DNA of 64,000 nucleotides from Bacillota bacterium. Its GTDB lineage: Bacteria; Bacillota; Proteinivoracia; UBA4975; VEMY01. The translations under genes were made by a program, and so were the position numbers. Below are positions 242-46,791 of the stretch, piece by piece. The stretch lies in assembly GCA_009711825.1 (NCBI GenBank), contig VEMY01000009.1, positions 14,283 to 78,282 on the forward strand. Reading direction: 5' to 3'. Below the pieces are notes generated by a model. It did no database searches and was not told the DNA's origin. It saw only the letters and a program-made list of their open reading frames with translations. Positions within the stretch are counted from its first letter, which is position 1, and each line of letters begins with the position of its first letter.

Positions 242-1804
242 ATGGAGCGGGCACGTTTGGGCATCAGTGTCAGAGATGCGCTCAAGCTGGAGGCCTTTGA
301 CGGTGTGGAGGTTGTCGCCGGTGCAGGTGGCTTAGATTCATTAATTTTTCATATCAACGTCATGGAGGTTCCTGATATCTTGGATTGGGTCAGGGAGGGT
401 GAGCTTCTTTTCACCACTCTTTATTCTCTGCGAGACAAGCCCCAGGAACAGGTCGAACTTATCCCCAGACTGGCGGAAAAAAAACTAGCTGGTCTGGCTA
501 TCAAGCCCAAACGATATATCGACGAAATCCCTTCTGAGGCGCTGGAGTTGGCCGACAAGCATAGTTTCCCCATATTACAGCTCCCCCCCAAAACAGCGTT
601 TGCAGCTTTAATGGAGCCGCTGCTGCAAGAAATTCTAGACTTTCAGACTGACCTGCTCCACCGCTCGGAGTTGGCTCATAATGCCCTCTTGGATGTGGTT
701 TTGCGGGGAGGTAGCCTTGAGGATTTGGCGAGACAGCTCAGCCAATTGGTCAATTGTCAGATTGTTGTGCTGAATAGAGATTTCCAGTCGCTTACTGAGG
801 AACCCCCTGATTTGCACCAATGGCTGGAGCATAATCGGCCTCGCAAAGATTACCGGCGATTAAATAAATTCAACGGGCAGTGCCCCGGAATTCTGGTGCC
901 GCTAATGGCTGGGGGTAGCCGACTGGGGTTTATATTGGCCATGGCCAAGTCTGGCGACTTCAGTGTCTTGGATGAGATTACCCTAGAACGGGGGGGCACT
1001 GTGGCTGCGCTTGAAATGATGAACGCCCGCACAGTTCAAGAAGTTGAACGGCGTTACCGCAACGAATTTCTTGTAGAGTTGGTTGAGGGGGCCTTTTCGG
1101 ACGATGTGGCCCGGCAGCGGGCTAGTATCAATGGCTGGCATTTACAGGATGAGATGCGAGTGTTTATGTACCGGTTTGAAGATTTTCGCAATCAGAGCCA
1201 AAAGGATAAATTACTGCAATTTTTACAAGAAAACTTTTGTAAGCGTTGCATTTCCGGCGAACTAGGGCGGGACGTTTTGGTTGTTACGCCTGTGGACCAT
1301 GACCTAGCAGAGTTTAGTTCTCGTAACATCGAGGCCATGGAACGAGCGGCCCAAAGCAGGTTGGTAATTGGCGTTGGCAGGGATTCTACCTCGATTCGGG
1401 ATATTAAATACAGTTTTCGCCAAGCCCGGGGAGCTGTCAAGACTGCAATGATAGTTCGTGGCTTGGGGACGGTGGTTCATTATAACCAGCTGGGAGTTTA
1501 TCGACTGCTGGAAGAAATGCGCGGCAAGCCGGAATTGCAGGCATACATCCAAGATAATTTGCAGGTGTTGCTTGATTATGACAAGGAAAACAATACTGAG
1601 TTGGTTAAAACGCTGCAGCGTTATTATGAGTTTGGGGGTAACCTGAAACAGGTTGCCCGGGAGTTGTTTGTGCACTACAATACCGTGGTATACCGAGTAG
1701 AACGCATCGAGAAATTGCTAAATGTGAGTCTTTCCAATCCCCGGCAGCGTCTGAGCCTGGAAGTGGCAGTTCGCGCTCTAGAAATGACCCGGGATAAACG
1801 ATGA
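242..1804 (+). CDS. PucR-family transcriptional regulator (purine-catabolism-regulator-like)
   Basis: 520 aa. C-terminal LVKTLQRYYEFGGNLKQVARELFVHYNTVVYRVERIEKLL is the PucR C-terminal HTH. RBS AGGGGTGA lies 4 nt upstream. Paralog at 46792-48405. Confidence 0.85.
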   Translation: MERARLGISVRDALKLEAFDGVEVVAGAGGLDSLIFHINVMEVPDILDWVREGELLFTTLYSLRDKPQEQVELIPRLAEKKLAGLAIKPKRYIDEIPSEALELADKHSFPILQLPPKTAFAALMEPLLQEILDFQTDLLHRSELAHNALLDVVLRGGSLEDLARQLSQLVNCQIVVLNRDFQSLTEEPPDLHQWLEHNRPRKDYRRLNKFNGQCPGILVPLMAGGSRLGFILAMAKSGDFSVLDEITLERGGTVAALEMMNARTVQEVERRYRNEFLVELVEGAFSDDVARQRASINGWHLQDEMRVFMYRFEDFRNQSQKDKLLQFLQENFCKRCISGELGRDVLVVTPVDHDLAEFSSRNIEAMERAAQSRLVIGVGRDSTSIRDIKYSFRQARGAVKTAMIVRGLGTVVHYNQLGVYRLLEEMRGKPELQAYIQDNLQVLLDYDKENNTELVKTLQRYYEFGGNLKQVARELFVHYNTVVYRVERIEKLLNVSLSNPRQRLSLEVAVRALEMTRDKR

Positions 1805-1828
1805 CCGTCTAATTCAGGCGGTTTTTTT
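1804..1828 (+). terminator. Weak rho-independent terminator after pucR-like gene
   Basis: ACCGTCT-aattc-AGGCGGT stem (one G-U pair) followed by TTTTTTT. Confidence 0.45.
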
Positions 1829-1931: not shown

Positions 1932-2735
1932 ATGGATTTTGTGGCTGAAACTGCAGGGAGAGGGGTAGGTAATATCTTGCGGGGAGCTGGCCAAGTTATC
2001 GGAATTTATGATCAGGTAGTTAACATCGAGCTTGCCACCGGATTCTGTCTCAGCCTTGTAAGCAAAAAAATAGATCTGGCTCCTAACCGGATTTTGCTGG
2101 CCGGCCTGGATTGCATCCACCGACAAGTGAAACCTGGCGATATGGTGCGAGTTGGCAGCCATCAACTTTGGCACACCCGGTTCAGCATCGCCTGGGCAGC
2201 GCCGCCATCACAAGAATCCATTGAGCTTACCCCATTGTTAGCTAGTCTTGGGACCCTGGAAAAAGAGTTACGAACGGGAACAGGTGCCTGCCGCAGCTAT
2301 TTTTCCGACAGCGTCGGGTCATTTATCGATAATCAGGTCGCAGTGGAAGCGAAGAATCTGGCTGCCGGTTCCGACGGGGAGAGTTTGCTGGGCCTGGGCG
2401 CTGGCCTTACCCCCGCAGGTGACGACGTTCTTGTTGGCTACTTGGGCGCCTGCAATCAATTGGGTTTGGAGCCTGGTGTCGCTAACGGTTTTGTTGGCAA
2501 AGCCTTCCTGGTCACCGGTTCGCTCAGTGCAACCGCCATTTATTTTGCCAGCCAAGGCCAGGTTCAGGAACGGTTGAGTGCAGTAATTCAGGCGCTGTCA
2601 GGGTCACAATCTGAGTTGACAATCAACGCAAGGACTTTGATGCAGGTAGGTAGTAGCTCTGGCAGTGATATGTTGCTGGGAGTATATCTGGCTCTTGTCA
2701 AGTATTTTAATCAGATTGGGAGTGAAATTGCATGA
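1932..2735 (+). CDS. DUF2877 (YlbF-like) protein, putative subunit of the FdrA-type carbamoyltransferase module
   Basis: 267 aa, RBS GAGGAGG, ATGA overlap with the fdrA-like gene. Motif GLGAGLTPAGDDVLVGYL is shared with the paralog at 41053-41919 (GLGVGATPTADDMIHGAL). Gene context matches E. coli ylbF-fdrA-ylbE. Confidence 0.55.
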   Translation: MDFVAETAGRGVGNILRGAGQVIGIYDQVVNIELATGFCLSLVSKKIDLAPNRILLAGLDCIHRQVKPGDMVRVGSHQLWHTRFSIAWAAPPSQESIELTPLLASLGTLEKELRTGTGACRSYFSDSVGSFIDNQVAVEAKNLAAGSDGESLLGLGAGLTPAGDDVLVGYLGACNQLGLEPGVANGFVGKAFLVTGSLSATAIYFASQGQVQERLSAVIQALSGSQSELTINARTLMQVGSSSGSDMLLGVYLALVKYFNQIGSEIA

Positions 2736-4264
2736 CAGAAAAGGTGCTGGTCAGGCCGAACGCTTATTATGATTCTGCAACGTTGATGTCTGTTGCGCAA
2801 AAGGTGAAGAGCGAACAGGGTGTCGACGAGGCCGTGGCTGTAATGGCCACTGAAGCAAACAAAGAGTTATTGGCGAATGTAGGAATGCTCAGTCAGGAGG
2901 CTGGTGCCGCCACAACCCGGGATCTGGTCTTGGCTGTTCGTGGTGATAGTCAGGAGGCGATCGAAGCCGCCTTTCAAATGATAGAGGCAGAGTTGGCCGG
3001 TGCCAAAGAGGAAATAGCGAAAGAAAAAGCACCCCGCTCTCTGGCGGAGGCGTTGGAACAGAAGCCTGATGCTAACTTGGTTGTAATTTCTGTAGCCGGT
3101 CAGTTTGCAGCCCGGGAGGCCCGCAAAGCTCTGGAGGCAGGACTCAATGTAATGTTATTCAGTGATAACGTGCCGCTGGAAGCCGAGATTGAACTGAAAA
3201 CGCTTGCAGCTGAAAAAGGTCTATTGATGATGGGCCCCGATTGCGGTACCGCACTGATTGGCGGTGCGCCTTTGGCCTTCGCCAATGTGGTGCGGAGAGG
3301 GAAAATTGGGATTGTAGCTGCCGCCGGTACTGGCCTCCAGGAGGTAAGCACTTTGATTCATCGCCTTGGCGGCGGTGTCAGCCATGGTATTGGCACCGGC
3401 GGACGGGACGTCAAGGCTTCCGTGGGAGGCAGGCAATTACTCTTTGGCATTCAGGCTTTGGAAGCGGATTCGGCCACTGAAGTGATTGTTGTGACCGGTA
3501 AACCGCCGGCGCCAGACGTGGAAGTTAAATTGCTTGATCTGATAAAAACGTGCAAAAAGCCTGTGATTGTGAACCTTTTGGGGGGTGATGCGGAGGCAAC
3601 TGCCGCGGTCGGCGCCACATTTGCCCCCACACTGGAGGAGGCAGCTCAGTTGGCTGTTCAGGCCACTGGACTGAGCGGTAAATTGCCAATCGTGGGAAGC
3701 GGAACCCCACACATTGATTTTGCGCCCAACCAACGATGGTTACGGGGCTTGTTTACCGGCGGCACCCTTTGTTATGAGGCCCAACTGGTATTGGCCAAGA
3801 AGCTGGGCCCGGTTTACTCAAATACACCGCTTAAACCTGAGCTAGCGGCGGATGACTTTGCTGGTTCTCGGCACATTGTGTTGGACCTGGGTGATGATCA
3901 GTTTACCAGTGGACGCCCCCACCCAATGATCGAGCCTTCTATTCGCGGCGAGTGGCTGACAAAGGTGGCCGCTGACCCGGAGATCGCTGTAGTATTGATG
4001 GATTTTGTCCTCGGTTATGGTGCCCATCGGGAACCGGTTGCGTCAATTGCGGACGAGATACAAGCTGCCCAGACGCAGGCTGCGGAACGGGGAGGCAATT
4101 TGATGATCATCGCTTCTGTAACAGGGACCAATGAAGACCCTCAGATTCTGGACAGACAGGTAGCGGAACTCGAAGCGTTGGGAGTTATCGTCCTGCCCTC
4201 CAATCGCCGTGCGGTGGAGCAGGCCGCGCTGGTGCTTCGCAACCTGGAAGGGAGGCAGAACTAA
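2732..4264 (+). CDS. fdrA: FdrA-family protein (acyl-CoA synthetase / succinyl-CoA-synthetase-alpha-like fold)
   Basis: 510 aa. Motifs GPDCGTALIGG, GIVAAAGTGLQEV, GIGTGGRD and LGDDQFTSGRPHPMIEP are typical of FdrA. Coupled start (ATGA). Confidence 0.85.
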   Translation: MTEKVLVRPNAYYDSATLMSVAQKVKSEQGVDEAVAVMATEANKELLANVGMLSQEAGAATTRDLVLAVRGDSQEAIEAAFQMIEAELAGAKEEIAKEKAPRSLAEALEQKPDANLVVISVAGQFAAREARKALEAGLNVMLFSDNVPLEAEIELKTLAAEKGLLMMGPDCGTALIGGAPLAFANVVRRGKIGIVAAAGTGLQEVSTLIHRLGGGVSHGIGTGGRDVKASVGGRQLLFGIQALEADSATEVIVVTGKPPAPDVEVKLLDLIKTCKKPVIVNLLGGDAEATAAVGATFAPTLEEAAQLAVQATGLSGKLPIVGSGTPHIDFAPNQRWLRGLFTGGTLCYEAQLVLAKKLGPVYSNTPLKPELAADDFAGSRHIVLDLGDDQFTSGRPHPMIEPSIRGEWLTKVAADPEIAVVLMDFVLGYGAHREPVASIADEIQAAQTQAAERGGNLMIIASVTGTNEDPQILDRQVAELEALGVIVLPSNRRAVEQAALVLRNLEGRQN

Positions 4265-5682
4265 TGTCTATTCTCCAAGAGAAGGTTAAAGTGATAAATA
4301 TTGGTCTGGGTAGCTTCGCCCGGGATCTGGAGTCGGCAGGTGTTGATGTAACCAATGTGGACTGGCACCCTGCAGCCGGAGGGGATGAAGAAGTCCTTGC
4401 TCTGCTAGACAAGCTGGCGCCGTTGGCTGAAGAAATAGACGCAGCCAATAAAGAAGCTTTGGGGCGGGTGCTCCAGGCCGAGCCGGTGCTGGTTGACCTG
4501 GGACCTGCCGGAGAGATGATTGCCGGGTTGCCGGAGCGAACCCTGCTTCATGCTGGCCCGCCATTGGAATGGAAGGAAATGAGCGGCCCGATGCGAGGCG
4601 CGGTCATTGGCGCGGTACTGTTTGAGGGATGGGCGGATTCTTCGGAAGCTGCGGAGGCTCTGGCTGCCTCAGGACAGCTTAACTTCGTCCCATGCCATCA
4701 TTATGATGCAGTCGGACCGATGACTGGGATGCTCTCGCCGTCGATGCCTGTGTTCGTTGTGGAAAACACCACCTTTGGCAACAGAGCATATTGTTCAATT
4801 AATGAGGGGCTGGGCAAGGTGCTGCGCTTTGGCGCCTATAGCCAGGAAGTCTTGAAACGGCTGGCTTGGTTACGGGATGAGTTTCATCCGCTGCTTAAGC
4901 AGGCGATTCTGGAAGTCGGCGGTATCCAGCTGAAGAACATCACCAGTCAGGCACTGCAGATGGGCGATGAATGCCATAATCGCAACAAGGCCGCATCTGC
5001 GCTGTTGTTACGGGAGTTGGCGCCCATCATCGCCGGCCTTGAGCTGCCCCGTGAAACCGTGACCCGGGCTCTAGACTTCATGCGTGGCAACGAACACTTC
5101 TATTTAAACGTTTCCATGGCTGCCTGCAAAGCCAGCCTCGACCCGGCCCGGGGGATCCGTTACTCAACAATGGTTACAGCCATGACTCGGAACGGTACCG
5201 ACTTCGGAATAAAAATCAGTGGCCTGGATGATCAGTGGTTTACTGCCCCCGCCCTGGCGGTGGACGGGCTTTACTTCCCCGGTTACAGCGCCGCTGATGC
5301 CAACCCCGACCTGGGGGACAGCACAATCACCGAGACCTTTGGGATTGGCGGTTTTGCAATGGCCAGTGCCCCTGCAATCGTAAAATTTGTCGGCGGCAGC
5401 CCCCAGGATGCCCTGGAATACAGCCGGTCGATGTACAGAATCACTCTGGGAGAGAACAGCAGCTACACCATACCAAATTTGAACTTCCGGGGTATTCCAA
5501 CCGGCATCGATCTGCGCAAAGTGTTGGAGGAGGATATTCTGCCGGCCTTGAATACCGGCATTGCTCATAAGGATGCCGGAGTGGGGCAAATCGGCGCCGG
5601 AGTCGTGAACCCACCATTGGCCTGCTTTAAAAAAGCCCTTGTTGCCTTTGTGGAAGCCCATCTTGGGGAGGAGGATAACTGA
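4264..5682 (+). CDS. DUF1116 (YlbE-like) protein
   Basis: 472 aa, TAATG overlap with fdrA. Collinear with the paralog at 43664-45073 (shared HAGPP, NFxPCHH, GDECHNR, DSTITET blocks). Confidence 0.8.
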   Translation: MSILQEKVKVINIGLGSFARDLESAGVDVTNVDWHPAAGGDEEVLALLDKLAPLAEEIDAANKEALGRVLQAEPVLVDLGPAGEMIAGLPERTLLHAGPPLEWKEMSGPMRGAVIGAVLFEGWADSSEAAEALAASGQLNFVPCHHYDAVGPMTGMLSPSMPVFVVENTTFGNRAYCSINEGLGKVLRFGAYSQEVLKRLAWLRDEFHPLLKQAILEVGGIQLKNITSQALQMGDECHNRNKAASALLLRELAPIIAGLELPRETVTRALDFMRGNEHFYLNVSMAACKASLDPARGIRYSTMVTAMTRNGTDFGIKISGLDDQWFTAPALAVDGLYFPGYSAADANPDLGDSTITETFGIGGFAMASAPAIVKFVGGSPQDALEYSRSMYRITLGENSSYTIPNLNFRGIPTGIDLRKVLEEDILPALNTGIAHKDAGVGQIGAGVVNPPLACFKKALVAFVEAHLGEEDN

Positions 5683-6875
5683 TGTTGTTAAAAAACTGCC
5701 GATTGCCCGACGGACGTCAGGTCGATATCCGCTTGGAAGGCGAAAACATCGTTGAAATTGCTTCTGGGCTCTCAGGAGATGAAGCGGATACCCTAGACGT
5801 AAAGGGCAAACTGGTCAGCCCCGGCTTTGTTGATTGCCACCTTCATTTGGACAAGACCTTGATCGCTCTAGACACTCCAAATGAAAGCGGCACTTTAGAT
5901 GAAGCTATCAAGATTACCCGCAGTCGCAAATCTGAGTTTACCAAAAACGAAGTAAAGGAAAGAGCTCGCAAAACCATTGAAAGGGCGATTGCCAACGGCA
6001 CAACATGGCTGCGCAGTAATATCGATATTGACCCGATTGTCGGGCTGACCGGACTTGAGGCGCTGCTTGAGTTGCGGGAGGAATACCGGGACAAGGTGGA
6101 CATGCAGTTAGTTGCCTTCCCTCAGGAAGGAATTAATAAGAGTCCAGGGACTCTAGAACTAATGATAGAGGCGTTAAAAAGTGGCGCCGATGTTGTCGGC
6201 GGCATTCCTGCCAAGGATATAGAGCCGGAGCTGCATATCACTAAGGTATTTGATTTAGCGGAACGATTTGCCGTGCCTTTGGATATCCATACTGATGAGT
6301 CGGACAACCCCGCTGATTTGACACTGGTGGAGATTGCCCGGCAGACCATGGCCCGTGGTCTTGAGGGCAAGGTTGCTGTTGCCCACTGTTGCTCTCTAGC
6401 TGCTTTGCCCCCGAACGCCCTGGAGGCGATTTTAACGGAGATTGCTCCCGCCCAGTTGAATGTTGTTTCATTACCTTCCACCAATCTCTACCTTCAGGGG
6501 CGTGGCGATAGCCATCGGGTGCGCCGGGGCATTGCCCCCGTACGGGCGCTTTTGGATAAAGGGTTCACAGTGGCGTTTGCATCTGATAATATCCGGGACG
6601 CATTTAATCCTTTTGGCACCGCTAATCTGCTACAAATCGGCCTGATGGCCGCCCACGGTTGCCATATGGGCGGCGTTGGCGACTTGAACCAGGTCTTTAC
6701 CATGTTGACCACAGCACCCGCCCGGATAGTTGGCGCGAACACCGGGCTTCGACCAGGAGCAAAAGCAGACCTTGTAATCCTGGATGCCGAATCACCGGTG
6801 CAGGCAATTATTGAGCAGGCACCGGTCCTGGAGCGGATCTACAGAGGTGTCGCCGATGGGAGGTGGTGTTACTAA
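5682..6875 (+). CDS. Amidohydrolase-superfamily enzyme, cytosine-deaminase/AtzC-like
   Basis: 397 aa, TGATG overlap with the upstream gene. N-terminal metal ligands GFVDCHLHLDK, then DIHTDE, HCCS and ASDNIRD blocks, as in the cytosine deaminase subfamily. Confidence 0.8.
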   Translation: MLLKNCRLPDGRQVDIRLEGENIVEIASGLSGDEADTLDVKGKLVSPGFVDCHLHLDKTLIALDTPNESGTLDEAIKITRSRKSEFTKNEVKERARKTIERAIANGTTWLRSNIDIDPIVGLTGLEALLELREEYRDKVDMQLVAFPQEGINKSPGTLELMIEALKSGADVVGGIPAKDIEPELHITKVFDLAERFAVPLDIHTDESDNPADLTLVEIARQTMARGLEGKVAVAHCCSLAALPPNALEAILTEIAPAQLNVVSLPSTNLYLQGRGDSHRVRRGIAPVRALLDKGFTVAFASDNIRDAFNPFGTANLLQIGLMAAHGCHMGGVGDLNQVFTMLTTAPARIVGANTGLRPGAKADLVILDAESPVQAIIEQAPVLERIYRGVADGRWCY

Positions 6876-6920
6876 ACACTTCCTGACGGAGGAAAAAATA
6901 TAATTGGGAGGGTCTAATAA

Positions 6921-8168
6921 ATGAATCTGTTCCTACTGGTATTACCCCTGTTGGTTATTGTCGGGCTGTTATTTTGCAAGACACACATGTTGGTCGCCGC
7001 CTTTATCGGTGGTGTCTTGGCCGCAATCATTGGTGGTTTGGACATGGGCACAGTAAACAGCAGCTTCACCGCAGGTGTTGCGCAGATGATGGGGATTACC
7101 GTGCCTATACTCTACGCCGCCACGGCTGCAATGGTGGCCAAGGGAGGAAGTATTAAGGCTATTGTCGATTTGGCCGGTCATTACCTCAAGGGGCGCTTGG
7201 CAATCCTTGCAGCGTTCCTGGTCATTATCCAGGCCTTGGCCACTTATATGGCTGGTATGGGCGCCAGCAACACTATGGTTATCGCGCCACTGATTGCCGC
7301 CGCGGTTGGGTTTGTGCCCGAAGTCATAGCCGGACTTGCAATCGCCACAGCCGTTGGCTTCACCACCTCCCCGGCTTCATCGGAGACTGCGCTTGCTGCC
7401 GAAATGGCTGGCCGTGATGTGGTGGAGCATGCCGCTGCAATGCGTCCCTTTACTATTGTCTTCTTCCTAATCGGTGCGGCCCTGGCCGCGTACGGTGTTT
7501 ACAAACGGGGCACAATGGTAAAGGAGAACAAACAAGCAGACAAAGAACAAATGTCCCTAGGCCTGATGTGGAAGACCGCGATTCCTGCTCTGGCACTGTT
7601 GGTAATGGTTGTTGCCGGCGGCAACCTCAACAACCTGGTTGGTTTTACAATTTTCACTCCGGGCACAACGGTAATGTTTACAACAGTCCTGACAGTTTTC
7701 CTGACCAAAATGAATGCCAACGAGTCGGCAAAAGCGTTAATTGACGGCTCGAAATTTATCCTAATGACTCTGTTCTCGGTCGGGATGTTTCTTGGCTTCA
7801 TCAATTTACTGGGTGAAATCGGCACTTTCAGTGAACTGGCTGCCCTGGCTGGCAGGGTGCCGGATGTTCTGGTTTTGCCAGCCGCAATGCTAATTGCATT
7901 TATCGTCGCGTTTCCCGCCGGCGCTTTTGCTGCCGGAGTACTGGCTCTGGTGCTCCCCACTTTAGCTAACCTGGGAATGCCCTCAGAGGCAATGGGCTTC
8001 GTTGCAATTGCGGTTGGTCTCGGTACTCAGATCAGTCCGGTGCAAATCAATGTTGCCGCTCTATCCGATGGTTTTGAGATATCAGTGATGGACGTCATCC
8101 GCGCCAATCTCAAATTTGTATTGGCAGCATTGGCCTTGCTTTTAGTGTTGGCGGTAATCTTTGTCTAA
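6921..8168 (+). CDS. Multi-pass membrane permease (ion-transporter-superfamily-like, family not recognised)
   Basis: 415 aa, almost entirely hydrophobic helices with one central hydrophilic loop (KENKQADKEQ). Lies in the operon between two hydrolases. Confidence 0.6.
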   Translation: MNLFLLVLPLLVIVGLLFCKTHMLVAAFIGGVLAAIIGGLDMGTVNSSFTAGVAQMMGITVPILYAATAAMVAKGGSIKAIVDLAGHYLKGRLAILAAFLVIIQALATYMAGMGASNTMVIAPLIAAAVGFVPEVIAGLAIATAVGFTTSPASSETALAAEMAGRDVVEHAAAMRPFTIVFFLIGAALAAYGVYKRGTMVKENKQADKEQMSLGLMWKTAIPALALLVMVVAGGNLNNLVGFTIFTPGTTVMFTTVLTVFLTKMNANESAKALIDGSKFILMTLFSVGMFLGFINLLGEIGTFSELAALAGRVPDVLVLPAAMLIAFIVAFPAGAFAAGVLALVLPTLANLGMPSEAMGFVAIAVGLGTQISPVQINVAALSDGFEISVMDVIRANLKFVLAALALLLVLAVIFV

Positions 8169-8217
8169 TGACGGGGAGGAGTAATCCTCCCCTATACCCT
8201 CACAAGGAGGTAATAAT

Positions 8218-9321
8218 ATGTTAAACGCAAAAGTGTTTACTGTGGAGATGAATGCACCCGATGATGTTTCCGGGTTGAAAGACCTATTAGACAGCGGCGC
8301 AATAAAGCCAGAAGAAGTCCTGGCAGTGTTGGGTAAGACAGAAGGGAATGGCTGTGTAAACGATTTTACCCGCGGGTTCAGCACCATGGCCTTTAAGCAA
8401 CTGTTGGCCGACTATCTTGACACCTCTCCGAAGGAAGTGGAGAAGCGGGTGGCTTTTGTCATGTCTGGTGGCACCGAAGGAGTAATGACTCCCCATGCGA
8501 CAATCTTCGCCCAGAGCGAGGAAAAAGCTTCGGCGCCAGCTGAGCCGGGTTTGTCCATCGGAGTCGCCTTCACGCGGGACTTCTTGCCCGAGGAATTGGG
8601 CACTATGACCCAAGTTGAGGAAGTAGCGAAGGCTGTCGAAGCGGCTATGGCCGAAGCTCGTATTGATTCCGTGTCAGATGTACACTTTGTGCAAATAAAA
8701 TGCCCGCTACTCACTTCGGAGAGAATTAACGATGCTCTCAAGCGGGGAAGGAAAGTGGTTGTCAGCGATACCTACAAATCTATGGGTTATTCTCGAGCTG
8801 CCTCCGCCTTGGGCATCGCCCTTGCTTTGGGTGAGGTCAACAAAGAACAATTGGCAGACGAAAAAATCGCCAGCGACTGGAGTTTATATTCGGCGTTGGC
8901 ATCCACATCTGCTGGTGTTGAACTTGAAAATTGTGAGATTATTCTTATGGGCAATTCCAGACATTCGGTGAGCAAGTACAAAATTGGCCACAGTGTGATG
9001 GAAGACGCCATTGACATCCAGGCCGTTTTGGCCGCTATGCGGGACGCTGGACTGGAATTCGCAGGCCTACCTACGGCAGAACAGATGAAGCGTGTGGTGA
9101 ACGTATTCGCCAAGGCTGAAGCTGATCCCACCGGTTATGTGCGTGGGCGTCGCAACACAATGCTAACCGACTCAGACATCAACCACACCCGCCATGCCCG
9201 GGCGGTAGTCAATGCTGTTGTCGCTTCCGTTGTCGGCGACCCAATGGTCTATATCTCCGGGGGCGCCGAACATCAGGGTCCTGCCGGTGGCGGCCCAGTT
9301 GCTGTGATTCTGGAAAAGTAA
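8218..9321 (+). CDS. Ring-opening cyclic-amide hydrolase (AtzD/TrzD cyanuric acid hydrolase / barbiturase family)
   Basis: 367 aa, the family-typical length. N-terminus [45 protein letters not shown], plus the FVMSGGTEG block and the three-fold internal repeat pattern characteristic of this family. Confidence 0.8.
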
Positions 9322-9356
9322 CCACTCCTTGCCGACATCGAGAGGAGGAATTATAA

Positions 9357-10664
9357 ATGTCCGACCAGGAAATTAAAAGGGTCATTCAGCCTGTCTACGA
9401 CATTGAGGACAATCCCCCGCTAAAAGAAGGTTTTCCCCTGGCGGTGCAACACATTTTGGCCATGTTTGCTGGAAACATTACGGCCCCAATTATTGTCGCT
9501 TCAATGCTGGGGCTGGCGGCTGCCGATCAGACCTTTCTGATTCAGTCTGCCCTGTTGGCGGCAGCCATCGGGACCTGGATTCAGGCGGGGCGCAGGTTTA
9601 AAGTCGGCTCAAGCTTGCCGATTGTAATGGGCACAAGCAATGCGTTCATTCCTACCATAACGGGAATCGCCAGCCGGTTCGGCATTGGTGCGGTCCTGGG
9701 CGCCGGCTTTGTCGGCGGCATATTTGAACTACTTCTGGGCGGCGTCATGCCCAAGATCAGAAAGCTCTTCAGCCATCTGGTGATGGGAATTGTCGTCCTG
9801 ACCATTGGTATCACCCTGATTCCCGTCGGTATCCGGCAAGCAGCCGGTGGTAATGTCGATTTTGGTTCGGCAACCAATTTACTGTTGGCTGCACTGGTTC
9901 TGGTAACAATCATTTTGCTCAATCAGTTTGGCAAGGGATTCTTCCGCGCTTCGGCAATTCTCCTGGGAATCGTTGTCGGTTATGTCGCAGCGATTATTCT
10001 CGGCATGGTTGATTTTACATCGGTGGCCGAGGCCAGTTGGGTGGCATTCCCCACGCCCTTCCGTTATCAATGGAGTTTTCCGCCCTCGGCAATTATTGCG
10101 ATGGTAATGATGTATATTGTAACTGCCGTAGAAACCGTTGGCGACGTGTCTGCGATTACCATGGGCGGCGCCGGCCGGGAGGCGACAGAGGAGGAGGCCA
10201 CCGGTGCGGTACTGGCCGATGGCGCAGCCAGCAGTATTGCTGCGATTTTCAATGCCTTCCCCAATACTTCATACAGCCAAAACGTCGGTGTGGTTACGTT
10301 GACAGGTGTCATGAGCCGCCATATTGTGCGGTTGGGGGCAATAATCCTTTTGGCCATGTCATTGCTGCCTAAACTGGCTGCCGTCATTTCATTGATTCCG
10401 ACAGCTGTATTGGGTGGAGCAGCCATCATCATGTTCTCCATGGTGGCGTCCTCGGGATTTGTGCTCTTGCAGCGAGTGCAGCTGAACAGGCGTAATCTGC
10501 TGATCATCGCCGTTTCTTTGGGGTTGGGTGTCGGCTTTAATGTTGTTCCTTCGGCTTTGGATATTCTGCCGGACGGTCTACGTCTAATCTTTGCGGAGAC
10601 CGGTGTGGCAACGGCAACTTTGACAGCAATATTCCTCGATCAGACGCTACCCCGGGAAGAATAA
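9357..10664 (+). CDS. NCS2-family nucleobase (uracil/xanthine-type) permease
   Basis: 435 aa. PLAVQHILAMFAGNITAPIIVA and NTSYSQNVGVVTLTGV are signature NCS2 segments. Confidence 0.85.
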   Translation: MSDQEIKRVIQPVYDIEDNPPLKEGFPLAVQHILAMFAGNITAPIIVASMLGLAAADQTFLIQSALLAAAIGTWIQAGRRFKVGSSLPIVMGTSNAFIPTITGIASRFGIGAVLGAGFVGGIFELLLGGVMPKIRKLFSHLVMGIVVLTIGITLIPVGIRQAAGGNVDFGSATNLLLAALVLVTIILLNQFGKGFFRASAILLGIVVGYVAAIILGMVDFTSVAEASWVAFPTPFRYQWSFPPSAIIAMVMMYIVTAVETVGDVSAITMGGAGREATEEEATGAVLADGAASSIAAIFNAFPNTSYSQNVGVVTLTGVMSRHIVRLGAIILLAMSLLPKLAAVISLIPTAVLGGAAIIMFSMVASSGFVLLQRVQLNRRNLLIIAVSLGLGVGFNVVPSALDILPDGLRLIFAETGVATATLTAIFLDQTLPREE

Positions 10665-10706
10665 GCGACTGACAGGTAACTGTATCTAATCAATTTAAAT
10701 CTAATA

Positions 10707-10736
10707 AAATTACCACTGCTCCGGCAGTGGTAATTT
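10707..10736 (+). promoter_or_regulatory. Intra-operon stem-loop between permease and carbamate kinase (attenuator/processing site or weak terminator)
   Basis: Perfect 13-bp stem AAATTACCACTGC-tccg-GCAGTGGTAATTT, 17 nt upstream of the arcC start. No long U-tract. Confidence 0.4.
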
Positions 10737-10753
10737 ATGAGAGGAGACAAACT

Positions 10754-11686
10754 ATGGCAAAAATTGTTATAGCTCTGGGCGGGAATGCAATTCTGCGTCC
10801 TGGCCAAAAAGGTACTTTTGATGAACAAATGGCGAATGTGCGGCTCACTGCCGAAAAAATTGTTCAACTGGTGCGAGCCGGTGATCAGGTGATAGTTACC
10901 CATGGTAATGGCCCTCAAGTGGGGAACTTGCTTATTCAGCATGAGGCGGGACGGAATCAGGTGCCGGCGCTGCCCCTGGATGTATGCGGCGCCCAGACCC
11001 AAGGCCAGATTGGCTATATGATTCAACACGCGCTGACAGAAGAGCTAAATAAGCTAAGTATAGACAAGCCAGTGGCAGCGATAATTACCCGGGTGCGGGT
11101 GGACGAAAATGACCCGGCCTTTGCCAATCCCACCAAGCCGGTGGGGCCATTCTTCAGCGTCGAGCATGCCAAGCAGCGGAGAGAAGCAGGTGAGCACTGG
11201 GTAGAAGACAGTGGCCGCGGCTGGCGGCGGGTAGTCCCTTCACCACGACCGGTGGAGATCATGGAACTTACGACCATTGAGGCCCTGGCTGCCCAAGAGG
11301 GAATTGTAATTGCTGCCGGCGGCGGTGGAATTCCCGTAGTTCAGCGGGACGGCGGCCTGGTTGGGGCAGAAGCCGTAATCGATAAAGATCTTGCCGGCTG
11401 TCGCCTGGCCATGGATGTCCAGGCCGATATGCTGATGATACTCACGGACGTAGAAAAAGTAGCGATTGACTTTGGTAAACCTAGTCAGGTGGATTTGGCG
11501 CAAATTGATCTTAGCGAGGCCCAGACCTATCTGGATCAAGGCCAGTTTGGCGCCGGCAGTATGGGGCCGAAAGTACAAGCGGCGATGGAATTTGTCAAAA
11601 CCACAGGTGGCCGGGCAATCATAACATCACTGGTGAAAGCGGTCGAAGCTGTTGAGGGCACCGCTGGGACAAGCATTGTCAAATAA
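10754..11686 (+). CDS. arcC: Carbamate kinase
   Basis: MAKIVIALGGNAIL..THGNGPQVG..AAGGGGIPV are canonical carbamate kinase motifs. ATG at 10754 is preferred over 10727 because GAGGAG lies 7 nt upstream. Confidence 0.9.
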   Translation: MAKIVIALGGNAILRPGQKGTFDEQMANVRLTAEKIVQLVRAGDQVIVTHGNGPQVGNLLIQHEAGRNQVPALPLDVCGAQTQGQIGYMIQHALTEELNKLSIDKPVAAIITRVRVDENDPAFANPTKPVGPFFSVEHAKQRREAGEHWVEDSGRGWRRVVPSPRPVEIMELTTIEALAAQEGIVIAAGGGGIPVVQRDGGLVGAEAVIDKDLAGCRLAMDVQADMLMILTDVEKVAIDFGKPSQVDLAQIDLSEAQTYLDQGQFGAGSMGPKVQAAMEFVKTTGGRAIITSLVKAVEAVEGTAGTSIVK

Positions 11687-41052: not shown

Positions 41053-41919
41053 TCAGATTACCGCTTCTAGCATACTGTATATGCCAATCATTATGTCGTA
41101 ACCACTGGTTGCTCCAATGCCAGCTACCTGGGCAGCTGACTCGGCCAAATCCTTTCCTTCAAAGATGTTTATCAGCAAATCTCTTACTGGTTCGGCGGCG
41201 AGTCCCTTCTGTCCCATGTGCAACATGTGAAACCCGAGGGTGGTAGTTTTGACGTCAAGGCCGCAAGGTAGTTCGTGGTAGATTGGGTCCAGAATGCCGG
41301 TTGCCCCGAGATAAGTCCGGGTTATCAAAGCTCCATGTATCATGTCGTCCGCTGTTGGGGTGGCGCCCACGCCCAGGCCTGCAAGACGCAAACAGGTTCG
41401 TTGGAATAAACCAACATCGCAATGCACCAATGCTTTGACCAGGCAGGGAAAGTGAAGAAGCAATTCCTGCTCAAAAGGACAGTTTGTGCTTGCGCCGGCC
41501 AGGGCAGAGCTGGCGGAGCGGGGCATGGAAACCAGTAAGTTTTTTAAAGAGTTTGTGCTGTCGCTGAGAATCGTCGGATCTGTTTTTAGACCGTTCGGTA
41601 TGCCAAAGTCGATTGCTGGCGTTGTTTCAAAATACATCTTTATCGAAGAGTTCACATTGTTAAATTCTATACATCCCTGTCCAACACGGCAGGATTGGTT
41701 ATCATCAAAATAGTTATATATTGTAGTAAAATCTTCGTGGGAGAGTCCCATAGCTGATGGACCTTTGTAGATCTGTGGCGACGAAATCATCACCAAATCC
41801 GGTGTGTCTCCAATGCGCAGATTAATTACTGTCTGGTGTCTGGAAACCGGGAAAAGCTCTTTGGTTTTCGTGAGTTCTAAATCGGTGGCCACCCATAAGG
41901 CTTCGACAGCGGATTTCAA
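41053..41919 (-). CDS. DUF2877 (YlbF-like) protein, paralog 2
   Basis: 288 aa. GLGVGATPTADDMIHGAL motif. TTG start 6 nt after AAGGAGTGA. Last gene of the second FdrA cluster. Confidence 0.55.
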   Translation of the reverse strand: MKSAVEALWVATDLELTKTKELFPVSRHQTVINLRIGDTPDLVMISSPQIYKGPSAMGLSHEDFTTIYNYFDDNQSCRVGQGCIEFNNVNSSIKMYFETTPAIDFGIPNGLKTDPTILSDSTNSLKNLLVSMPRSASSALAGASTNCPFEQELLLHFPCLVKALVHCDVGLFQRTCLRLAGLGVGATPTADDMIHGALITRTYLGATGILDPIYHELPCGLDVKTTTLGFHMLHMGQKGLAAEPVRDLLINIFEGKDLAESAAQVAGIGATSGYDIMIGIYSMLEAVI

Positions 41920-43663: not shown

Positions 43664-45073
43664 CTAAACCGAACTGTGTAATGCCTTCAGGGCTGTGACA
43701 AAGCATTCCAAGGGGATTTCCGTAATTCCGGCCCCGACAATACCATGGCCCGGTTCGCGATGGGCGATGCCGGTATTGATTTTCGGGTGAATGCCCGTTT
43801 CCACAACCTTGCGGATATCTATACCGGTGGGGGCGCCGATAAAGTCCAGGGCAGGGATGGTGTACGCCTTATTTTCAGCATGAGTTATTTCCGCCATGGA
43901 CTTTGTAAAGCCAATTGCTTCTGAGAGCTTACCGCCAACCAACTTGACCATTGCTGGCGCCGCTGCCATTGCGAAGGCGCCGATGCCGCATGTCTCGGTG
44001 ATGGTGCTGTCTCCTATGTCTGGGTTGGCATCTTCCTTGGTAAATGGTGGGAACATTATCCCTCGAACGGGCGGGGCTGGTGCGGTAAACCATTGGTCAC
44101 CCAATCCACTGACCCGGACACCTGCTTCCACCCCATTCCGCGCCATCGCAGTGACGATGGTGCTCATTGGGATTCCATGGCCCGCGTCTAGGGTTGCTTT
44201 GCAAGCGGCCATAGAAAAGTTGAGGAAAAACCAGTCATTATGCTGCATGTAGTCTGCCAACTGGGCCAAATGTTCGCCTGGTCTCTCCAGCCTAGTCAGG
44301 AAGGGCATAATCTCCCGCAGGAGCAGCGATGTTGAGGCGACATGCCTGTTATGGCATTCATCACCCATGTGCAAAGCGCGGGCTGTAATTGCTTTGAGAT
44401 CGATGCCGCCGCTCTTGCGCACTGCTTCGCCCAGCATCGGCCCCATTACATCCCGCTGCCAGGCCAGGATATCCTGGACGTCAGAGTCAAAGGCGCCGAA
44501 GCTTAAGGCCTTACGGTTTTTCTCGCTATTGAAATTGCTATACGCCCGGTTGCCATCGGTGCGGTTCTCAACTACCATAATAGGCATTGATGCGGTAATT
44601 ACACCGGACATAGGGCCAACGGTATTGAAATGGTGACAGGGAGAAAAGTTCAGCACACCGGAAGCCGCCAGGGCCATCGCTTCATCCTTGTCCTTGGCCC
44701 GGCCCTCAAAAATCAGGGCACCGATGACCGCACCCTTCATCGGGCCACACATATTCTCCCAGCTAACCGGCGGGCCGGCATGGAGGACTGTGTCCGGGGT
44801 AAACCCGGGTATTACATCCAGTGCTGGTCCCACATCAATCCAGACGGGCTGGGCGTTTAGTATTTTCTCCAGGGCTTTGTCATTGGCCTCCTGAATCGCC
44901 TCGTAGTGGTCCTCCAGGGCCAGCAGAATACTATTTAATTCCTGGTCTCCCTGGGCGGGTGGGCGCCAATCCACCTGAACACTGTCTGAACCGGCTGATT
45001 TCACTGTTTCCCCAAAGCTGTCCACACCGACGTTGACGACCTTTGGCTTGGACCCTAAAAGCTTGTCAGACAT
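43664..45073 (-). CDS. DUF1116 (YlbE-like) protein, paralog 2
   Basis: 469 aa from ATG 45073 (AAGGAG 8 nt upstream). Collinear with 4264-5682. Confidence 0.8.
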   Translation of the reverse strand: MSDKLLGSKPKVVNVGVDSFGETVKSAGSDSVQVDWRPPAQGDQELNSILLALEDHYEAIQEANDKALEKILNAQPVWIDVGPALDVIPGFTPDTVLHAGPPVSWENMCGPMKGAVIGALIFEGRAKDKDEAMALAASGVLNFSPCHHFNTVGPMSGVITASMPIMVVENRTDGNRAYSNFNSEKNRKALSFGAFDSDVQDILAWQRDVMGPMLGEAVRKSGGIDLKAITARALHMGDECHNRHVASTSLLLREIMPFLTRLERPGEHLAQLADYMQHNDWFFLNFSMAACKATLDAGHGIPMSTIVTAMARNGVEAGVRVSGLGDQWFTAPAPPVRGIMFPPFTKEDANPDIGDSTITETCGIGAFAMAAAPAMVKLVGGKLSEAIGFTKSMAEITHAENKAYTIPALDFIGAPTGIDIRKVVETGIHPKINTGIAHREPGHGIVGAGITEIPLECFVTALKALHSSV

Positions 45074-45074
45074 C

Positions 45075-46738: not shown

Positions 46739-46791
46739 CATACAGACAAAAAAAGGGCGACTAGTGCCCAAGATTTTGTAACTATTATTCT

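Follow-up and report, generated by a model that had tools for sequence, protein, structure and literature searches.

Gene content of the locus

The window, by which we mean the full 64-kb stretch analysed, comes from an uncultured Clostridia-type bacterium and carries on its + strand a block at 1932-11686 of eight genes in the same direction, downstream of a gene for a PucR-family regulator. Re-reading of the ORF coordinates and profile searches against Pfam and NCBIfam bore out the positions and family identities given in the original prediction. That prediction had counted nine genes; eight lie within the interval, and nine are reached if pucR is included. The features, in order, are:

242..1804, + strand: PucR-family transcriptional regulator (PF07905, PF17853 and PF13556 matches)
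1803..1823, + strand: terminator-like hairpin and T-run, immediately 3' of the pucR stop
1932..2735, + strand: AllH/DUF2877 subunit of an AllFGH-type carbamoyltransferase (PF11392, 75.9 bits)
2732..4264, + strand: AllF/FdrA subunit, succinyl-CoA-synthetase-alpha-like (NF004760, 482 bits; cutoff 433)
4264..5682, + strand: AllG/DUF1116 subunit (PF06545, 319 bits; PDB 3CLQ, 431 bits)
5682..6875, + strand: CodA/AtzC-subfamily metal amidohydrolase containing GFVDCHLHLDK
6921..8168, + strand: multi-pass permease of an unclassified family (PermX)
8218..9321, + strand: cyanuric acid hydrolase (CAH), AtzD/TrzD family, Toblerone fold, 367 aa (PF09663; NF052395 CyanAcHdlAtzD, 562 bits; cutoff 360)
9357..10664, + strand: NCS2 nucleobase:cation symporter, pbuX-like (TIGR03173, 432 bits; cutoff 414)
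10707..10736, no strand: perfect 13-bp inverted repeat with a 4-nt loop, between the NCS2 and carbamate kinase genes
10754..11686, + strand: carbamate kinase (CK; TIGR00746 arcC, 417 bits; cutoff 358)

Direct reading confirmed the overlaps ATGA at 2732 (4 nt, between allH and allF), TAATG at 4264 and TGATG at 5682. The first four genes are thus translationally coupled, and strong Shine-Dalgarno sequences precede the later genes; a GGAGG lies 8 nt upstream of the allH start (ATG 1932). A preceding AGGAG Shine-Dalgarno sequence makes ATG 10754 the most likely start of the carbamate kinase, in preference to GTG 10727, where the ORF opens. In a hairpin scan, none of the + strand terminator candidates within the block had a strong stem (>6 pairs), and the few short + strand matches did not exceed chance expectation. 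From this context, we infer that the block is cotranscribed. The hairpin at 1803..1823 would separate pucR from the operon, of which PucR is the likely regulator; a pucR gene also lies near 17 of the 30 AllFG-linked AtzD loci among the best 80 AtzD genome loci (see below), and PucR was found at loci L082, L086 and L088 as well. The repeat at 10707..10736, with no T-tract after it on the + strand, might serve as an operator or form a stem-loop in the mRNA.

The ring-opening enzyme

The 367-aa protein had been described as AtzD/barbiturase-type. Profile searches matched it to the ring-opening amidohydrolase family (PF09663, NF052395), and it shares 66% identity with the characterised CAH of Moorella thermoacetica, scoring 502 bits against that enzyme (PDB 6BUM) versus 324 bits against barbiturase. 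All three Ser-Lys dyads, whose inspection had been proposed, are in place, as are three arginines (Ser83/231/347, Lys40/161/299 and Arg52/193/328); barbiturases have Gln at the position of Arg193. Its sequence thus places the ring-opener with the cyanuric acid hydrolases and not with the barbiturases, so that only the AtzD side of the description stands. On this identity, carboxybiuret (or allophanate, or biuret) is favoured as the downstream compound, and the proposed ureidomalonate/substituted-uracil branch is disfavoured.

AllHFG, carbamate kinase and accessory genes

Identities to the E. coli proteins are 32% for AllH, 39% for AllF (K-12; 303 bits to E. coli FdrA, PDB 3DMY) and 51% for AllG1. 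AllG bears at its N-terminus a domain of roughly 50 aa that in E. coli is joined to the C-terminus of FdrA instead: it aligns to FdrA model positions 505-554 and, at 50% identity (E=1e-15), to the K-12 FdrA C-terminus. The carbamate kinase shares 39% identity with E. coli AllK and 54% with the pADP-1 ArcC adjoining atzC. The original prediction had named FdrA-YlbE-YlbF as oxamate carbamoyltransferase, which we verified (Kim & Kim 2024, PMC11326118); E. coli AllFGH is the only characterised AllFGH, and its known activity is confined to oxalurate/oxamate (PMC11326118).

The amidohydrolase reached no NCBIfam cutoff. Its PDB matches are cytosine deaminases (216-232 bits) and AtzC (167 bits), and it carries equivalents of the AtzC-type Lys65 and Asn304 plus the CodA-type HxxE Glu (residue roles from PMC4577212). 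The AtzC-type Lys and Asn agree with the suggested role of a deaminase feeding the pathway; against it, few clusters carry this accessory gene, and in E. faecalis a divergent homologue belongs to an allD-containing cluster. The protein could conceivably be an ammelide-type deaminase that makes cyanurate, as an optional feeder. PermX matched no Pfam family, even at E=10. Its homologues occur in 21 of the 30 AllFG-linked AtzD loci (among the best 80) and in Zhaonella, Moorella and an E. coli island, making PermX a candidate cyanurate transporter. NCS2 genes occur in 15 of the same 30 loci.

The paralogous AllFGH cluster

A paralogous cluster lies on the opposite strand:

46792..48414, - strand: second PucR-family regulator, heading the cluster
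45075..46739, - strand: AllF2, about 42-45% identical to AllF1
43664..45082, - strand: AllG2, 54% identical to AllG1
41995..43542, - strand: 515-aa multi-pass membrane protein of an unclassified family (no Pfam/NCBIfam match)
41053..41919, - strand: AllH2 (PF11392, 56 bits)

Homologues of the 515-aa protein adjoin BiuH-like genes in AtzD/AllHFG clusters of other genomes (L001, L007, L009, L018 and L019; E=1e-127 to 1e-160) and occur at 8 of the 80 AllG-centred metagenome loci. The AllF of Zhaonella is nearer to AllF2 (~53%), which is not AtzD-linked, than to AllF1 (~47%). Neighbour-joining trees of AllF and AllG, built without support values, did not cleanly set apart an AtzD-specific subfamily. 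Locus L082 holds a second AllF'-AllG' pair.

Linkage across genomes

We surveyed AtzD neighbourhoods at the best 80 of at least 600 matches listed, a biased sample from which the AtzD-locus frequencies derive. In 30 of these 80 genome loci, AllF/G was no more than 10 kb away from AtzD; among the 30, AllH was present in 23, CK in 22 and PermX in 21. The linked loci come from Bacillota, Enterobacteriaceae, Actinomycetota, Rokubacteria, Bathyarchaeia and Nitrososphaera. Because the linkage recurs in 30 of the best 80 loci, which are independent and span many phyla, the AtzD-AllFG arrangement is far beyond chance. It is also clade-specific: in the window's AtzD clade, 18 of the 21 loci whose flanks both reach 5 kb or more were linked (among the best 80), compared with one locus in the other clades, which have AtzE, AtzF or BiuH in place of AllFGH. 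The predicted linkage of ring-opener and FdrA module is therefore kept across phyla, and we found no description of AtzD-AllFGH-CK linkage in the searchable literature.

Spacing is tight in several lineages, with AtzD starting 7-38 nt past AllG. In Zhaonella and Moorella sp. Hama-1, whose CAHs are respectively 94% and 85% identical to the Moorella CAH, AtzD lies 35-38 nt downstream of AllH-AllF-AllG; both clusters have PermX, PucR and NCS2, and that of Zhaonella has CK. Some E. coli drafts carry an island flanked by IS/Tn3 elements with the order PermX-AtzD-NCS2-AllH-AllF-AllG-CK-LysR, a self-contained mobile unit alongside the native oxalurate allFGHK. Its proteins are only 39% (AllF), 48% (AllG) and 29% (AllH) identical to their native K-12 counterparts and it has its own CK, which marks the island as a module in its own right and not a duplicate of the oxalurate enzyme.

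AllFG linkage and hydrolytic-route genes are largely mutually exclusive, with AtzE/AtzF-type amidase genes at 16 of 50 unlinked versus 2 of 30 linked loci and BiuH-type genes at 12 of 50 versus 5 of 30 (best 80), which we count in favour of a phosphorolytic reading. Linked loci L102 and L146 also have BiuH-like or allophanate-hydrolase genes. No AllC, AllD, AllE or GlxK homologue was found at any linked locus (best 80) or within the 64-kb window, and no BiuH within the window. Around AllG at 80 metagenome loci, the neighbours included AtzD at 8, BiuH-like genes at 15, amidase genes at 14 and AllD at only 2.

A proposed phosphorolytic route and its alternatives

We favour, at a probability of roughly 55%, the reading that the operon is a phosphorolytic, energy-conserving route for cyanuric acid. 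Cyanurate would be imported by PermX and/or the NCS2 carrier, and the AtzD-type hydrolase would open the ring to 1-carboxybiuret, a chemistry established for the family. AllH-AllF-AllG, a complex paralogous to the E. coli oxamate carbamoyltransferase, would then pass the carbamoyl group at the end of the opened N-acyl-urea on to phosphate, giving carbamoyl phosphate, from which carbamate kinase, by the established chemistry of its family, would make ATP, NH3 and CO2 with ADP. The preferred substrate of AllHFG would be 1-carboxybiuret, yielding allophanate; alternatives or further rounds would convert allophanate to carbamate or biuret to urea. AllHFG and CK would thus stand in place of the hydrolytic AtzEGH/AtzF or BiuH/AtzF steps. 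The CodA/AtzC-like protein might make cyanurate by deaminating ammelide or another amino-dioxo-triazine, and PucR would control expression. Phosphorolysis of a cyanurate-derived ureide, ATP yield and anaerobic use are each inferred from gene context; the original prediction's observation is confirmed and its interpretation supported in part.

1-Carboxybiuret is the product common to AtzD and TrtA. It decarboxylates spontaneously, so its capture would need fast coupling of both enzymes. In Pseudomonas sp. ADP, too, the next enzyme uses 1-carboxybiuret, not biuret (PMC6219798). Since L102 and L146 carry BiuH-like or allophanate-hydrolase genes, carboxybiuret, allophanate and biuret all stay candidate substrates. 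Against the phosphorolytic reading count the known restriction of E. coli AllFGH to oxalurate/oxamate, the 51% identity between AllG1 and its E. coli counterpart, since proteins this similar often keep the same function, and the lack of a clean AtzD-specific subfamily in the AllF and AllG trees. PucR and the xanthine-permease-like carrier would also suit a purine-derived inducer or substrate.

The block might instead be a mixed nitrogen-scavenging unit, in which AllHFG and CK act on oxalurate and AtzD acts separately on cyanurate under PucR co-regulation, with no common intermediate. The characterised activity of E. coli AllFGH, the similarity of AllG1 to its AllG, the purine-related signals suggested by PucR and the pbuX-like permease, and a PucR-FdrA-DUF2877-arcC cluster with allD in E. 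faecalis all fit this, and the authors of a 2025 mSystems study took collocated allFGHK as oxalurate degradation (PMC12625717). We nevertheless consider it improbable: the AllB/C/D/E route to oxalurate is missing from the window and all linked loci (best 80), AllD is rare around AllG (2/80), the E. coli island repeats AllHFG and CK despite native allFGHK, AtzD follows AllG by 7-38 nt in several lineages, linkage is near-universal within one AtzD clade (best 80) across bacteria and archaea, and AtzD without a downstream enzyme frees no nitrogen. Just as improbable is action of AllHFG on allophanate alone (with Pi, to carbamoyl phosphate and carbamate), as a phosphorolytic substitute for AtzF after spontaneous carboxybiuret decarboxylation and biuret hydrolysis by a BiuH whose gene lies elsewhere. 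AllHFG and CK do occur together with true BiuH or BiuH-like genes in 15 of 80 metagenome loci, 5 of 30 linked genome loci (best 80) and nitrifier MAGs, and, on chemical reasoning only, allophanate resembles oxalurate in being an N-carbamoyl compound that ends in a carboxylate. But BiuH is absent from the 64-kb window and out of reach in most Bacillota clusters, the minimal islands of E. coli and Zhaonella hold, regulators aside, just AtzD, AllHFG, CK and transporters, and the allophanate-hydrolase-type amidase beside AllHFG in L102 and L146 would be redundant.

The remaining alternatives change the substrate of the ring-opener. The enzyme might act on another natural triazine or cyclic ureide, such as an oxidised-purine product that is oxalurate-like once opened; in vitro cyanurate hydrolysis would then be this same activity or a secondary one. 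Whence cyanurate arises in nature is debated (PMC4051656), the regulator and carriers are of purine type, and the AllF'-AllG' pair of L082 and the window's second AllFGH cluster suggest several related substrates; yet the active site equals those of characterised CAHs at every catalytic position, published CAHs have narrow specificity, and cyanurate is reported as a natural secretion product widespread in waters (PMC12342508), and we rate this reading below the two preceding ones. A barbiturate or substituted pyrimidine, with AllHFG converting ureidomalonate to malonamate and carbamoyl phosphate, is the least likely. Barbiturase is a member of this family too, ureidomalonate and carboxybiuret are isosteric and the cluster has nucleobase-type permeases, but the bit scores, Arg193 and the passed CAH equivalog cutoff (NF052395) all point away from it, CAHs bind barbiturate as an inhibitor without turnover (PMC4051656), and the cluster lacks a malonamate or malonate enzyme. 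If true, the phosphorolytic cyanurate route would be an undescribed, probably ATP-yielding breakdown of cyanuric acid in many bacterial and archaeal phyla.

Comparison with known systems

E. coli allFGH (fdrA-ylbE-ylbF) and allK, from its anaerobic allantoin branch (Kim & Kim 2022, 2024; PMC9843812, PMC11326118), comprise the same three subunit families and a carbamate kinase, with the same proposed logic of N-acyl-urea phosphorolysis to carbamoyl phosphate and then ATP and NH3. The window differs in gene order (H-F-G versus F-G-H), in the fusion of the 50-aa FdrA tail to the AllG N-terminus, and in its inferred substrate. It lacks allB/C/D/E of the E. coli branch and has AtzD and cyanurate-type transporters instead.

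The atzD-atzG-atzE-atzH-atzF system of Pseudomonas sp. ADP shares the first enzyme, the intermediate (1-carboxybiuret) and the end products CO2 and NH3, and the biuret route AtzD/TrzD-BiuH-AtzF, with TrtA/TrtB for triuret, is a hydrolytic counterpart with the same intermediate and end products. Downstream, these routes use amidases or isochorismatase-type hydrolases, whereas the window has an AllFGH-type transferase and CK; energy would therefore be kept as ATP, and urease and allophanate hydrolase would not be needed. The window's route also has an AtzD of a different clade (best 80 loci), found in mainly anaerobic or facultative taxa. The CAH of Moorella thermoacetica ATCC 39073 (PDB 6BUM; PMC6557486) has identical catalytic residues with the same numbering, and its 94% and 85% relatives lie in clusters of the window's type; it was studied as an isolated catalyst, its genomic partners not being discussed in the accessible literature.

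In comammox Nitrospira and ammonia-oxidising archaea, allFGHK is collocated with trtA/biuH/atzF of the triuret/biuret branch (PMC12625717), which matches the BiuH-like neighbours at 15 of 80 metagenome loci. Those MAGs lack atzD, and the authors read allFGHK as a separate oxalurate pathway and not as one for ureides derived from cyanurate or triuret; the carboxybiuret decarboxylase trtB is missing from the comammox clusters with allFGHK (PMC12625717). The arginine and agmatine deiminase pathways likewise phosphorolyse a ureido group to carbamoyl phosphate and gain ATP by substrate-level phosphorylation but, unlike AllFGH, they use an unrelated transferase of the ATCase/OTCase fold and amino-acid-derived substrates.

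Organization of the operon

The operon under study (window 1932-11686) lies on the + strand behind a PucR-family regulator. It combines genes for an AllHFG complex (DUF2877, FdrA and DUF1116 proteins, respectively), a ring-opening hydrolase of the AtzD family, two permeases, an amidohydrolase and a carbamate kinase (CK).

Features of the operon and its upstream region (window coordinates, strand, description)
242-1804, +, PucR-family regulator, heading the gene block
1803-1823, +, terminator-like hairpin right after pucR and ahead of the operon
1932-2735, +, AllH/DUF2877 (PF11392), with a GGAGG Shine-Dalgarno sequence ahead
2732-4264, +, AllF/FdrA (NF004760, 482 bits, cutoff 433)
4264-5682, +, AllG/DUF1116 (PF06545)
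5682-6875, +, CodA/AtzC-like amidohydrolase, no NCBIfam equivalog cutoff reached
6921-8168, +, permease without a Pfam family (PermX)
8218-9321, +, AtzD-family protein of 367 aa (NF052395, cyanuric acid amidohydrolase equivalog)
9357-10664, +, NCS2 permease (TIGR03173)
10727-11686, +, carbamate kinase ORF (TIGR00746, 417 bits, cutoff 358)

The ORF list and profile scans bore out the gene order and family assignments of the original prediction, and the ATGA, TAATG and TGATG overlaps it had described were all found in the sequence. The genes do form a same-strand block, although we counted eight of them rather than nine. The allH, allF and allG genes are translationally coupled, all three subunit families being encoded together (matches to NF004760, PF06545 and PF11392), and a catabolic carbamate kinase (TIGR00746) is encoded in the same operon. 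Each of the later genes has a strong ribosome-binding site ahead of it; the CK probably starts at ATG 10754, not at 10727. For PermX, relaxing the threshold to E=10 still gave no match in Pfam or NCBIfam.

Scanning for terminators revealed no strong + strand terminator inside the block, the hits being short stems of 5-6 pairs, within chance expectation. This absence of a convincing internal terminator, together with the gene overlaps, suggests that the operon is co-transcribed. No intrinsic terminator was detected 3' of the CK gene by the scan, and by eye we saw a weak hairpin without a T-tract. The operon probably ends here, given the 360-nt gap ahead of the next gene, which encodes an iron-containing alcohol dehydrogenase (window 12048-13235). 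No such gene adjoined an AtzD cluster elsewhere (0 of the best 80 genome loci), so the dehydrogenase is probably unrelated to the operon. The gap between the NCS2 and CK genes contains a perfect 13-bp inverted repeat (10707-10736; AAATTACCACTGC-TCCG-GCAGTGGTAATTT) with no coding-strand T-tract after it; this repeat may serve as an operator, or act in RNA processing or stability. The host belongs to a Bacillota lineage without cultured members. Its CysRS is 75-81% identical to the closest proteins, those from MAGs included, and the nearest cultured relative is Anoxybacter fermentans (64%).

The ring-opening enzyme is of the cyanuric acid hydrolase type

The 367-aa protein had been described as either AtzD-type or barbiturase-type. 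It matched the ring-opening family over its full length (PF09663, 555 bits, cutoff 25; TIGR02714, 548 bits, cutoff 153) and passed the equivalog for cyanuric acid hydrolases (CAHs; NF052395, 562 bits, cutoff 360). The nearest solved structures are CAHs, with that of Moorella thermoacetica (6BUM) scoring 502 bits, followed by TrzD and AtzD; barbiturase scored 324 bits. The M. thermoacetica CAH is also the closest assayed relative, with 66% identity and the same numbering. Enzymes of this family have three Ser-Lys dyads, each with an Arg partner and one set per repeated domain (residue roles and numbering from PMC6557486). All three sets are complete in the window AtzD (Ser83/Lys40/Arg52, Ser231/Lys161/Arg193 and Ser347/Lys299/Arg328), and Glu87, Glu235 and Glu351 are also conserved; both checks set beforehand, the AtzD/TrzD family match and the three dyads, thus came out in favor of the prediction.

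The position of Arg188 in the Azorhizobium enzyme distinguishes the subgroups, being Arg in CAHs and Gln in barbiturases (PMC4051656). The window AtzD has Arg193 there, within GYSRAAS. This residue, the structure scores and the equivalog match indicate a cyanurate-type enzyme, and we dropped the barbiturase reading. The window AtzD is a CAH-type protein, for which cyanurate hydrolysis is predicted.

AtzD is linked to AllFGH across genomes

We scanned genomes with an AtzD alignment, one genome per species, and kept the best 80 loci, a biased sample. Profile searches of the ORFs placed AllF and/or AllG within 10 kb of AtzD (linked loci) in 30 of these 80, so the co-occurrence for which the original prediction had proposed a neighborhood survey does exist. 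Among these 30, AllH was present in 23, CK in 22, PermX in 21 and PucR in 17. The carriers, among which MAG taxonomic labels may be wrong, include Tepidimicrobium-like Clostridia, Proteiniclasticum, Amphibacillus, Enterococcus, Carnobacterium, Hungatella, Oscillospiraceae, Acholeplasmataceae, Rubneribacter (Actinomycetota), Huaxiibacter (Enterobacteriaceae), Casimicrobiaceae, Baltobacteraceae, Rokubacteria, Chloroflexota and Thermodesulfobacteriota, as well as the archaea Bathyarchaeia and Nitrososphaera.

AllFG linkage is clade-specific among AtzD proteins. In our tree, the clade containing the window AtzD has 21 genome loci flanked by 5 kb or more on either side, of which 18 were linked; the unlinked loci of this clade mostly lay on contigs that end early. 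The alpha- and beta-proteobacterial and Paenibacillus clades contained one linked locus only, and have the known hydrolytic partners in its place. Within the best 80 loci, amidase genes occurred at 16/50 unlinked versus 2/30 linked loci, and BiuH-type isochorismatases at 12/50 versus 5/30; the hydrolytic partners were verified with NCBIfam models (AtzE, 678 bits, cutoff 461; BiuH, 414 bits, cutoff 370). Neither the operon nor the whole 64-kb window encodes an AtzE/AtzF amidase or an isochorismatase-type biuret hydrolase.

The context of the assayed CAH, from Moorella strain ATCC 39073, was read via relatives, the AtzD proteins of Zhaonella formicivorans (94% identical to it) and Moorella sp. 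Hama-1 (85%). In both, AtzD lies 35-38 nt downstream of AllH-AllF-AllG, in a cluster with PermX, PucR and NCS2, and Zhaonella also has CK. Since these close relatives sit in it, the cluster type includes a verified CAH lineage.

Some E. coli drafts carry an IS1/Tn3-flanked island, PermX-AtzD-NCS2-AllH-AllF-AllG-CK-LysR (loci L089, 8706-19309, and L090), in which a LysR-type regulator takes the place of the PucR of the window operon. The island proteins are 39% (AllF), 48% (AllG) and 29% (AllH) identical to their native K-12 counterparts, and the kinase is 39% identical to AllK. Megablast searches of 5,426 complete E. coli genomes and of PLSDB plasmids did not find the island; it is rare and was seen in draft assemblies only. 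This complete second set, gained together with AtzD by a species that already owns AllFGH and AllK for oxalurate, argues that the island is a self-contained module serving another function, and for AllFGH paralogy over orthology. The gene set of Huaxiibacter chinensis (L023) resembles that of the island.

The nearest relative of the window cluster is in Bacillota MAG GCA_900198705.1 (with related contigs, L082-L085, about 4300-20000), with an AtzD 80% identical to ours. This cluster also encodes an NCS1 permease, CK and an OMP-decarboxylase-family protein, and in L082 the same operon has a second AllF'-56-aa-AllG' set without an AllH of its own. Two AllF/AllG pairs would be consistent with a pair of steps, in succession or in parallel.

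The accessory amidohydrolase and atzC of pADP-1

The protein encoded at 5682-6875 falls in the CodA/AtzC subfamily, and its gene is found in few clusters only. Alignment with AtzC and CodA showed that the residues of the mononuclear metal site (HxH, His, Asp) and the catalytic His249/His246 equivalent are kept (equivalents of His60, His62, His217, His249 and Asp303). The known subtype III pockets comprise Lys65, His219, Asn304 and Trp309 in AtzC and Thr66, Glu217, Asp314 and Trp319 in CodA, and AtzC Lys65 and Asn304 contact the extra ring oxygen of the amino-dioxo-triazine (PMC4577212). The pocket here is a hybrid, with AtzC-like Lys65 and Asn304 equivalents, a CodA-like Glu (HTDE) and Phe for Trp. 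This enzyme may plausibly deaminate ammelide-like compounds, giving cyanurate, although its residues suggest this only weakly. An E. faecalis homolog (43% identical) has lost the Asp303 and Glu equivalents.

On plasmid pADP-1 (L094, 20219-22447; NC_004956.1, 70219-72447), arcC precedes atzC on the same strand, with IS elements around the pair. The arcC kinase is 54% identical to the window CK and 40% to E. coli AllK, which suggests that a CK-containing cluster of the present type was the source of atzC.

A second AllFGH cluster in the window

Features of the second cluster (window coordinates, strand, description)
46792-48414, -, second PucR regulator (PucR2)
45075-46739, -, AllF paralog (AllF2)
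43664-45082, -, AllG paralog (AllG2)
41995-43542, -, unclassified 515-aa membrane protein, unmatched in Pfam and NCBIfam at E values up to 10
41053-41919, -, AllH paralog (AllH2)

This cluster (41053-48414) encodes neither a carbamate kinase nor a ring-opening enzyme, and may borrow the kinase of the first cluster. Homologs of the 515-aa protein occur elsewhere inside AtzD/AllHFG clusters, beside BiuH-like genes, so the second cluster may serve a related ureide, perhaps biuret or triuret. The ORF directly downstream (window 40221-40961, - strand) has an N-terminal Phd/YefM antitoxin domain and a Uma2-family putative endonuclease domain.

Neighbors and architecture of the AllFGH family

We searched all loci and the window for AllB, AllC, AllD, AllE, GlxK and AllW and found none linked, with weak generic amidohydrolase matches only; AllC, AllD, AllE and GlxK homologs were absent from the linked AtzD loci among the best 80 and from the whole 64-kb window. 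Metagenome contigs scanned with an AllG alignment gave 80 AllG-centered loci. Their neighbors included AtzD (8), BiuH-like isochorismatases (15), amidases (14, among them proteins of allophanate-hydrolase type that scored 520 and 588 bits against a cutoff of 487) and the 515-aa permease family (8), versus AllD in 2 and AllB in 1; neither AllC nor AllE occurred in any. Environmental AllG genes thus mainly neighbor cyanurate, triuret and biuret genes.

In neighbor-joining trees, which carry no support values, the E. coli sequences fell outside most AtzD-linked ones and the window AllF2 nested among AtzD-linked ones; Zhaonella AllF is closer to AllF2 than to AllF1, the operon copy. Pairwise identities overlap, and the trees, though suggestive, only partly set apart an AtzD-specific AllF/AllG subfamily; our case does not rest on phylogeny.

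A domain of ~50 aa (V-x-V-I-N-I-G-L-x-S-F-A ... W-x-P-x-A-G-G-D) switches fusion partner within the family. In E. coli it is fused to FdrA at the C-terminal end (L081, 12190-12348), in the window to AllG at the N-terminal end (4264-4420), the two copies being 50% identical (E=1e-15); between AllF' and AllG' it stands alone as the 56-aa ORF (L082, 15361-15531). It is probably a subunit-docking element. The annotated fdrA of E. faecalis NZ_CP143580.1 (L092, 1998-13218) is a 1003-aa AllF-AllG fusion, in a cluster with PucR, DUF2877, an MFS transporter, arcC, allD and the diverged CodA/AtzC-like amidohydrolase.

A candidate phosphorolytic route

AtzD-type enzymes convert cyanurate to 1-carboxybiuret (H2N-CO-NH-CO-NH-COO-), and carbamate kinase produces ATP from carbamoyl phosphate. 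We propose that the AtzD-linked AllHFG complex would phosphorolyse the ring-opened product: 1-carboxybiuret + Pi -> carbamoyl phosphate + allophanate. With a second round, allophanate + Pi -> carbamoyl phosphate + carbamate, each cyanurate would give up its three nitrogens and yield two carbamoyl phosphates, and hence two ATP, without urease or allophanate hydrolase, and anaerobes could then ferment cyanuric acid. The minimal gene sets of the E. coli island and Zhaonella fit two rounds. On the more tentative wider proposal given below, the two AllF/AllG pairs of L082, and the two AllFGH clusters of the window, would divide the steps or substrates. The lifestyles of the carriers point to an anaerobic setting.

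1-Carboxybiuret is the most economical candidate for the AllHFG substrate. It is the direct product of AtzD and, like oxalurate, carries an N-carbamoyl group and ends in a carboxylate. In Pseudomonas sp. ADP, moreover, the enzyme acting after AtzD uses carboxybiuret, not biuret (PMC6219798). It is also the product of TrtA: in comammox bacteria and ammonia-oxidizing archaea, allFGHK adjoins trtA, biuH and atzF, and the comammox clusters are without trtB, the carboxybiuret decarboxylase gene (PMC12625717). The authors of that study noted no atzD there and took allFGHK as a separate oxalurate pathway. The operon subunits are 39% (AllF), 51% (AllG1, the operon AllG) and 32% (AllH) identical to those of E. 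coli, the AllG value counting as a caveat. Possible alternatives are that AllHFG acts on biuret, yielding urea, or on allophanate only, once a BiuH encoded at another site has acted. Carboxybiuret remains our favored substrate. More tentative is the wider proposal that AllFGH-type carbamoyltransferases are the core of a widespread but so far unrecognized energy-conserving cyanurate/triuret/biuret pathway, acting on carboxybiuret and then allophanate, and are not primarily allantoin enzymes; we would give it about three chances in ten.

Significance and comparison with known systems

Industry uses cyanuric acid in high volume, as a pool chlorine stabilizer, and the breakdown of s-triazine herbicides and of melamine shares it as an intermediate. 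To our knowledge, every genetically defined cyanurate route is hydrolytic and stems from aerobic members of the Proteobacteria or Actinobacteria. Earlier analyses of CAH co-occurrence reportedly considered BiuH and AtzE, not FdrA-type genes. A recent report describes cyanuric acid as a naturally secreted compound (ISME J 2025, PMC12342508) and cites studies of how microbes degrade it under anoxic conditions. For AtzD/cyanurate or biuret chemistry joined to AllFGH and CK, the searchable literature, outside which some subscription papers lie, gave PMC12625717 only.

The route proposed here would join known families into a third branch of cyanuric acid catabolism, phosphorolytic and energy-conserving, and would imply a new class of AllFGH substrate. 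If correct, it would provide a genetic basis for anaerobic cyanurate turnover, give the newly discovered AllFGH family a second physiological substrate class and explain why the thermophilic acetogen Moorella has a "herbicide-pathway" enzyme. The nitrifier allFGHK genes beside biuret and triuret genes would then need reinterpreting, AtzD plus AllHFG plus CK could serve as markers in metagenomic surveys, and the enzymes could be of use in bioremediation.

Compared with the classical AtzD-AtzEGH-AtzF and AtzD-BiuH-AtzF pathways, whose hydrolytic partner genes are found mainly at AtzD loci without AllFG, the window operon has an AllFGH-type carbamoyltransferase module and a kinase. E. coli FdrA-YlbE-YlbF (AllFGH) is an oxamate carbamoyltransferase (oxalurate + Pi <-> oxamate + carbamoyl phosphate), as the original prediction had it, and its genes share an operon, located downstream of allECD, with the gene for AllK, a catabolic carbamate kinase (Kim & Kim, PMC11326118). 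The window has the same three subunit families and an adjacent CK but, unlike E. coli, no associated allantoin-to-oxalurate genes (allB, allC, allE, allD). The E. faecalis cluster, in which allD is present, provides an oxalurate-type context, in contrast to the AtzD-linked type to which the window operon belongs.
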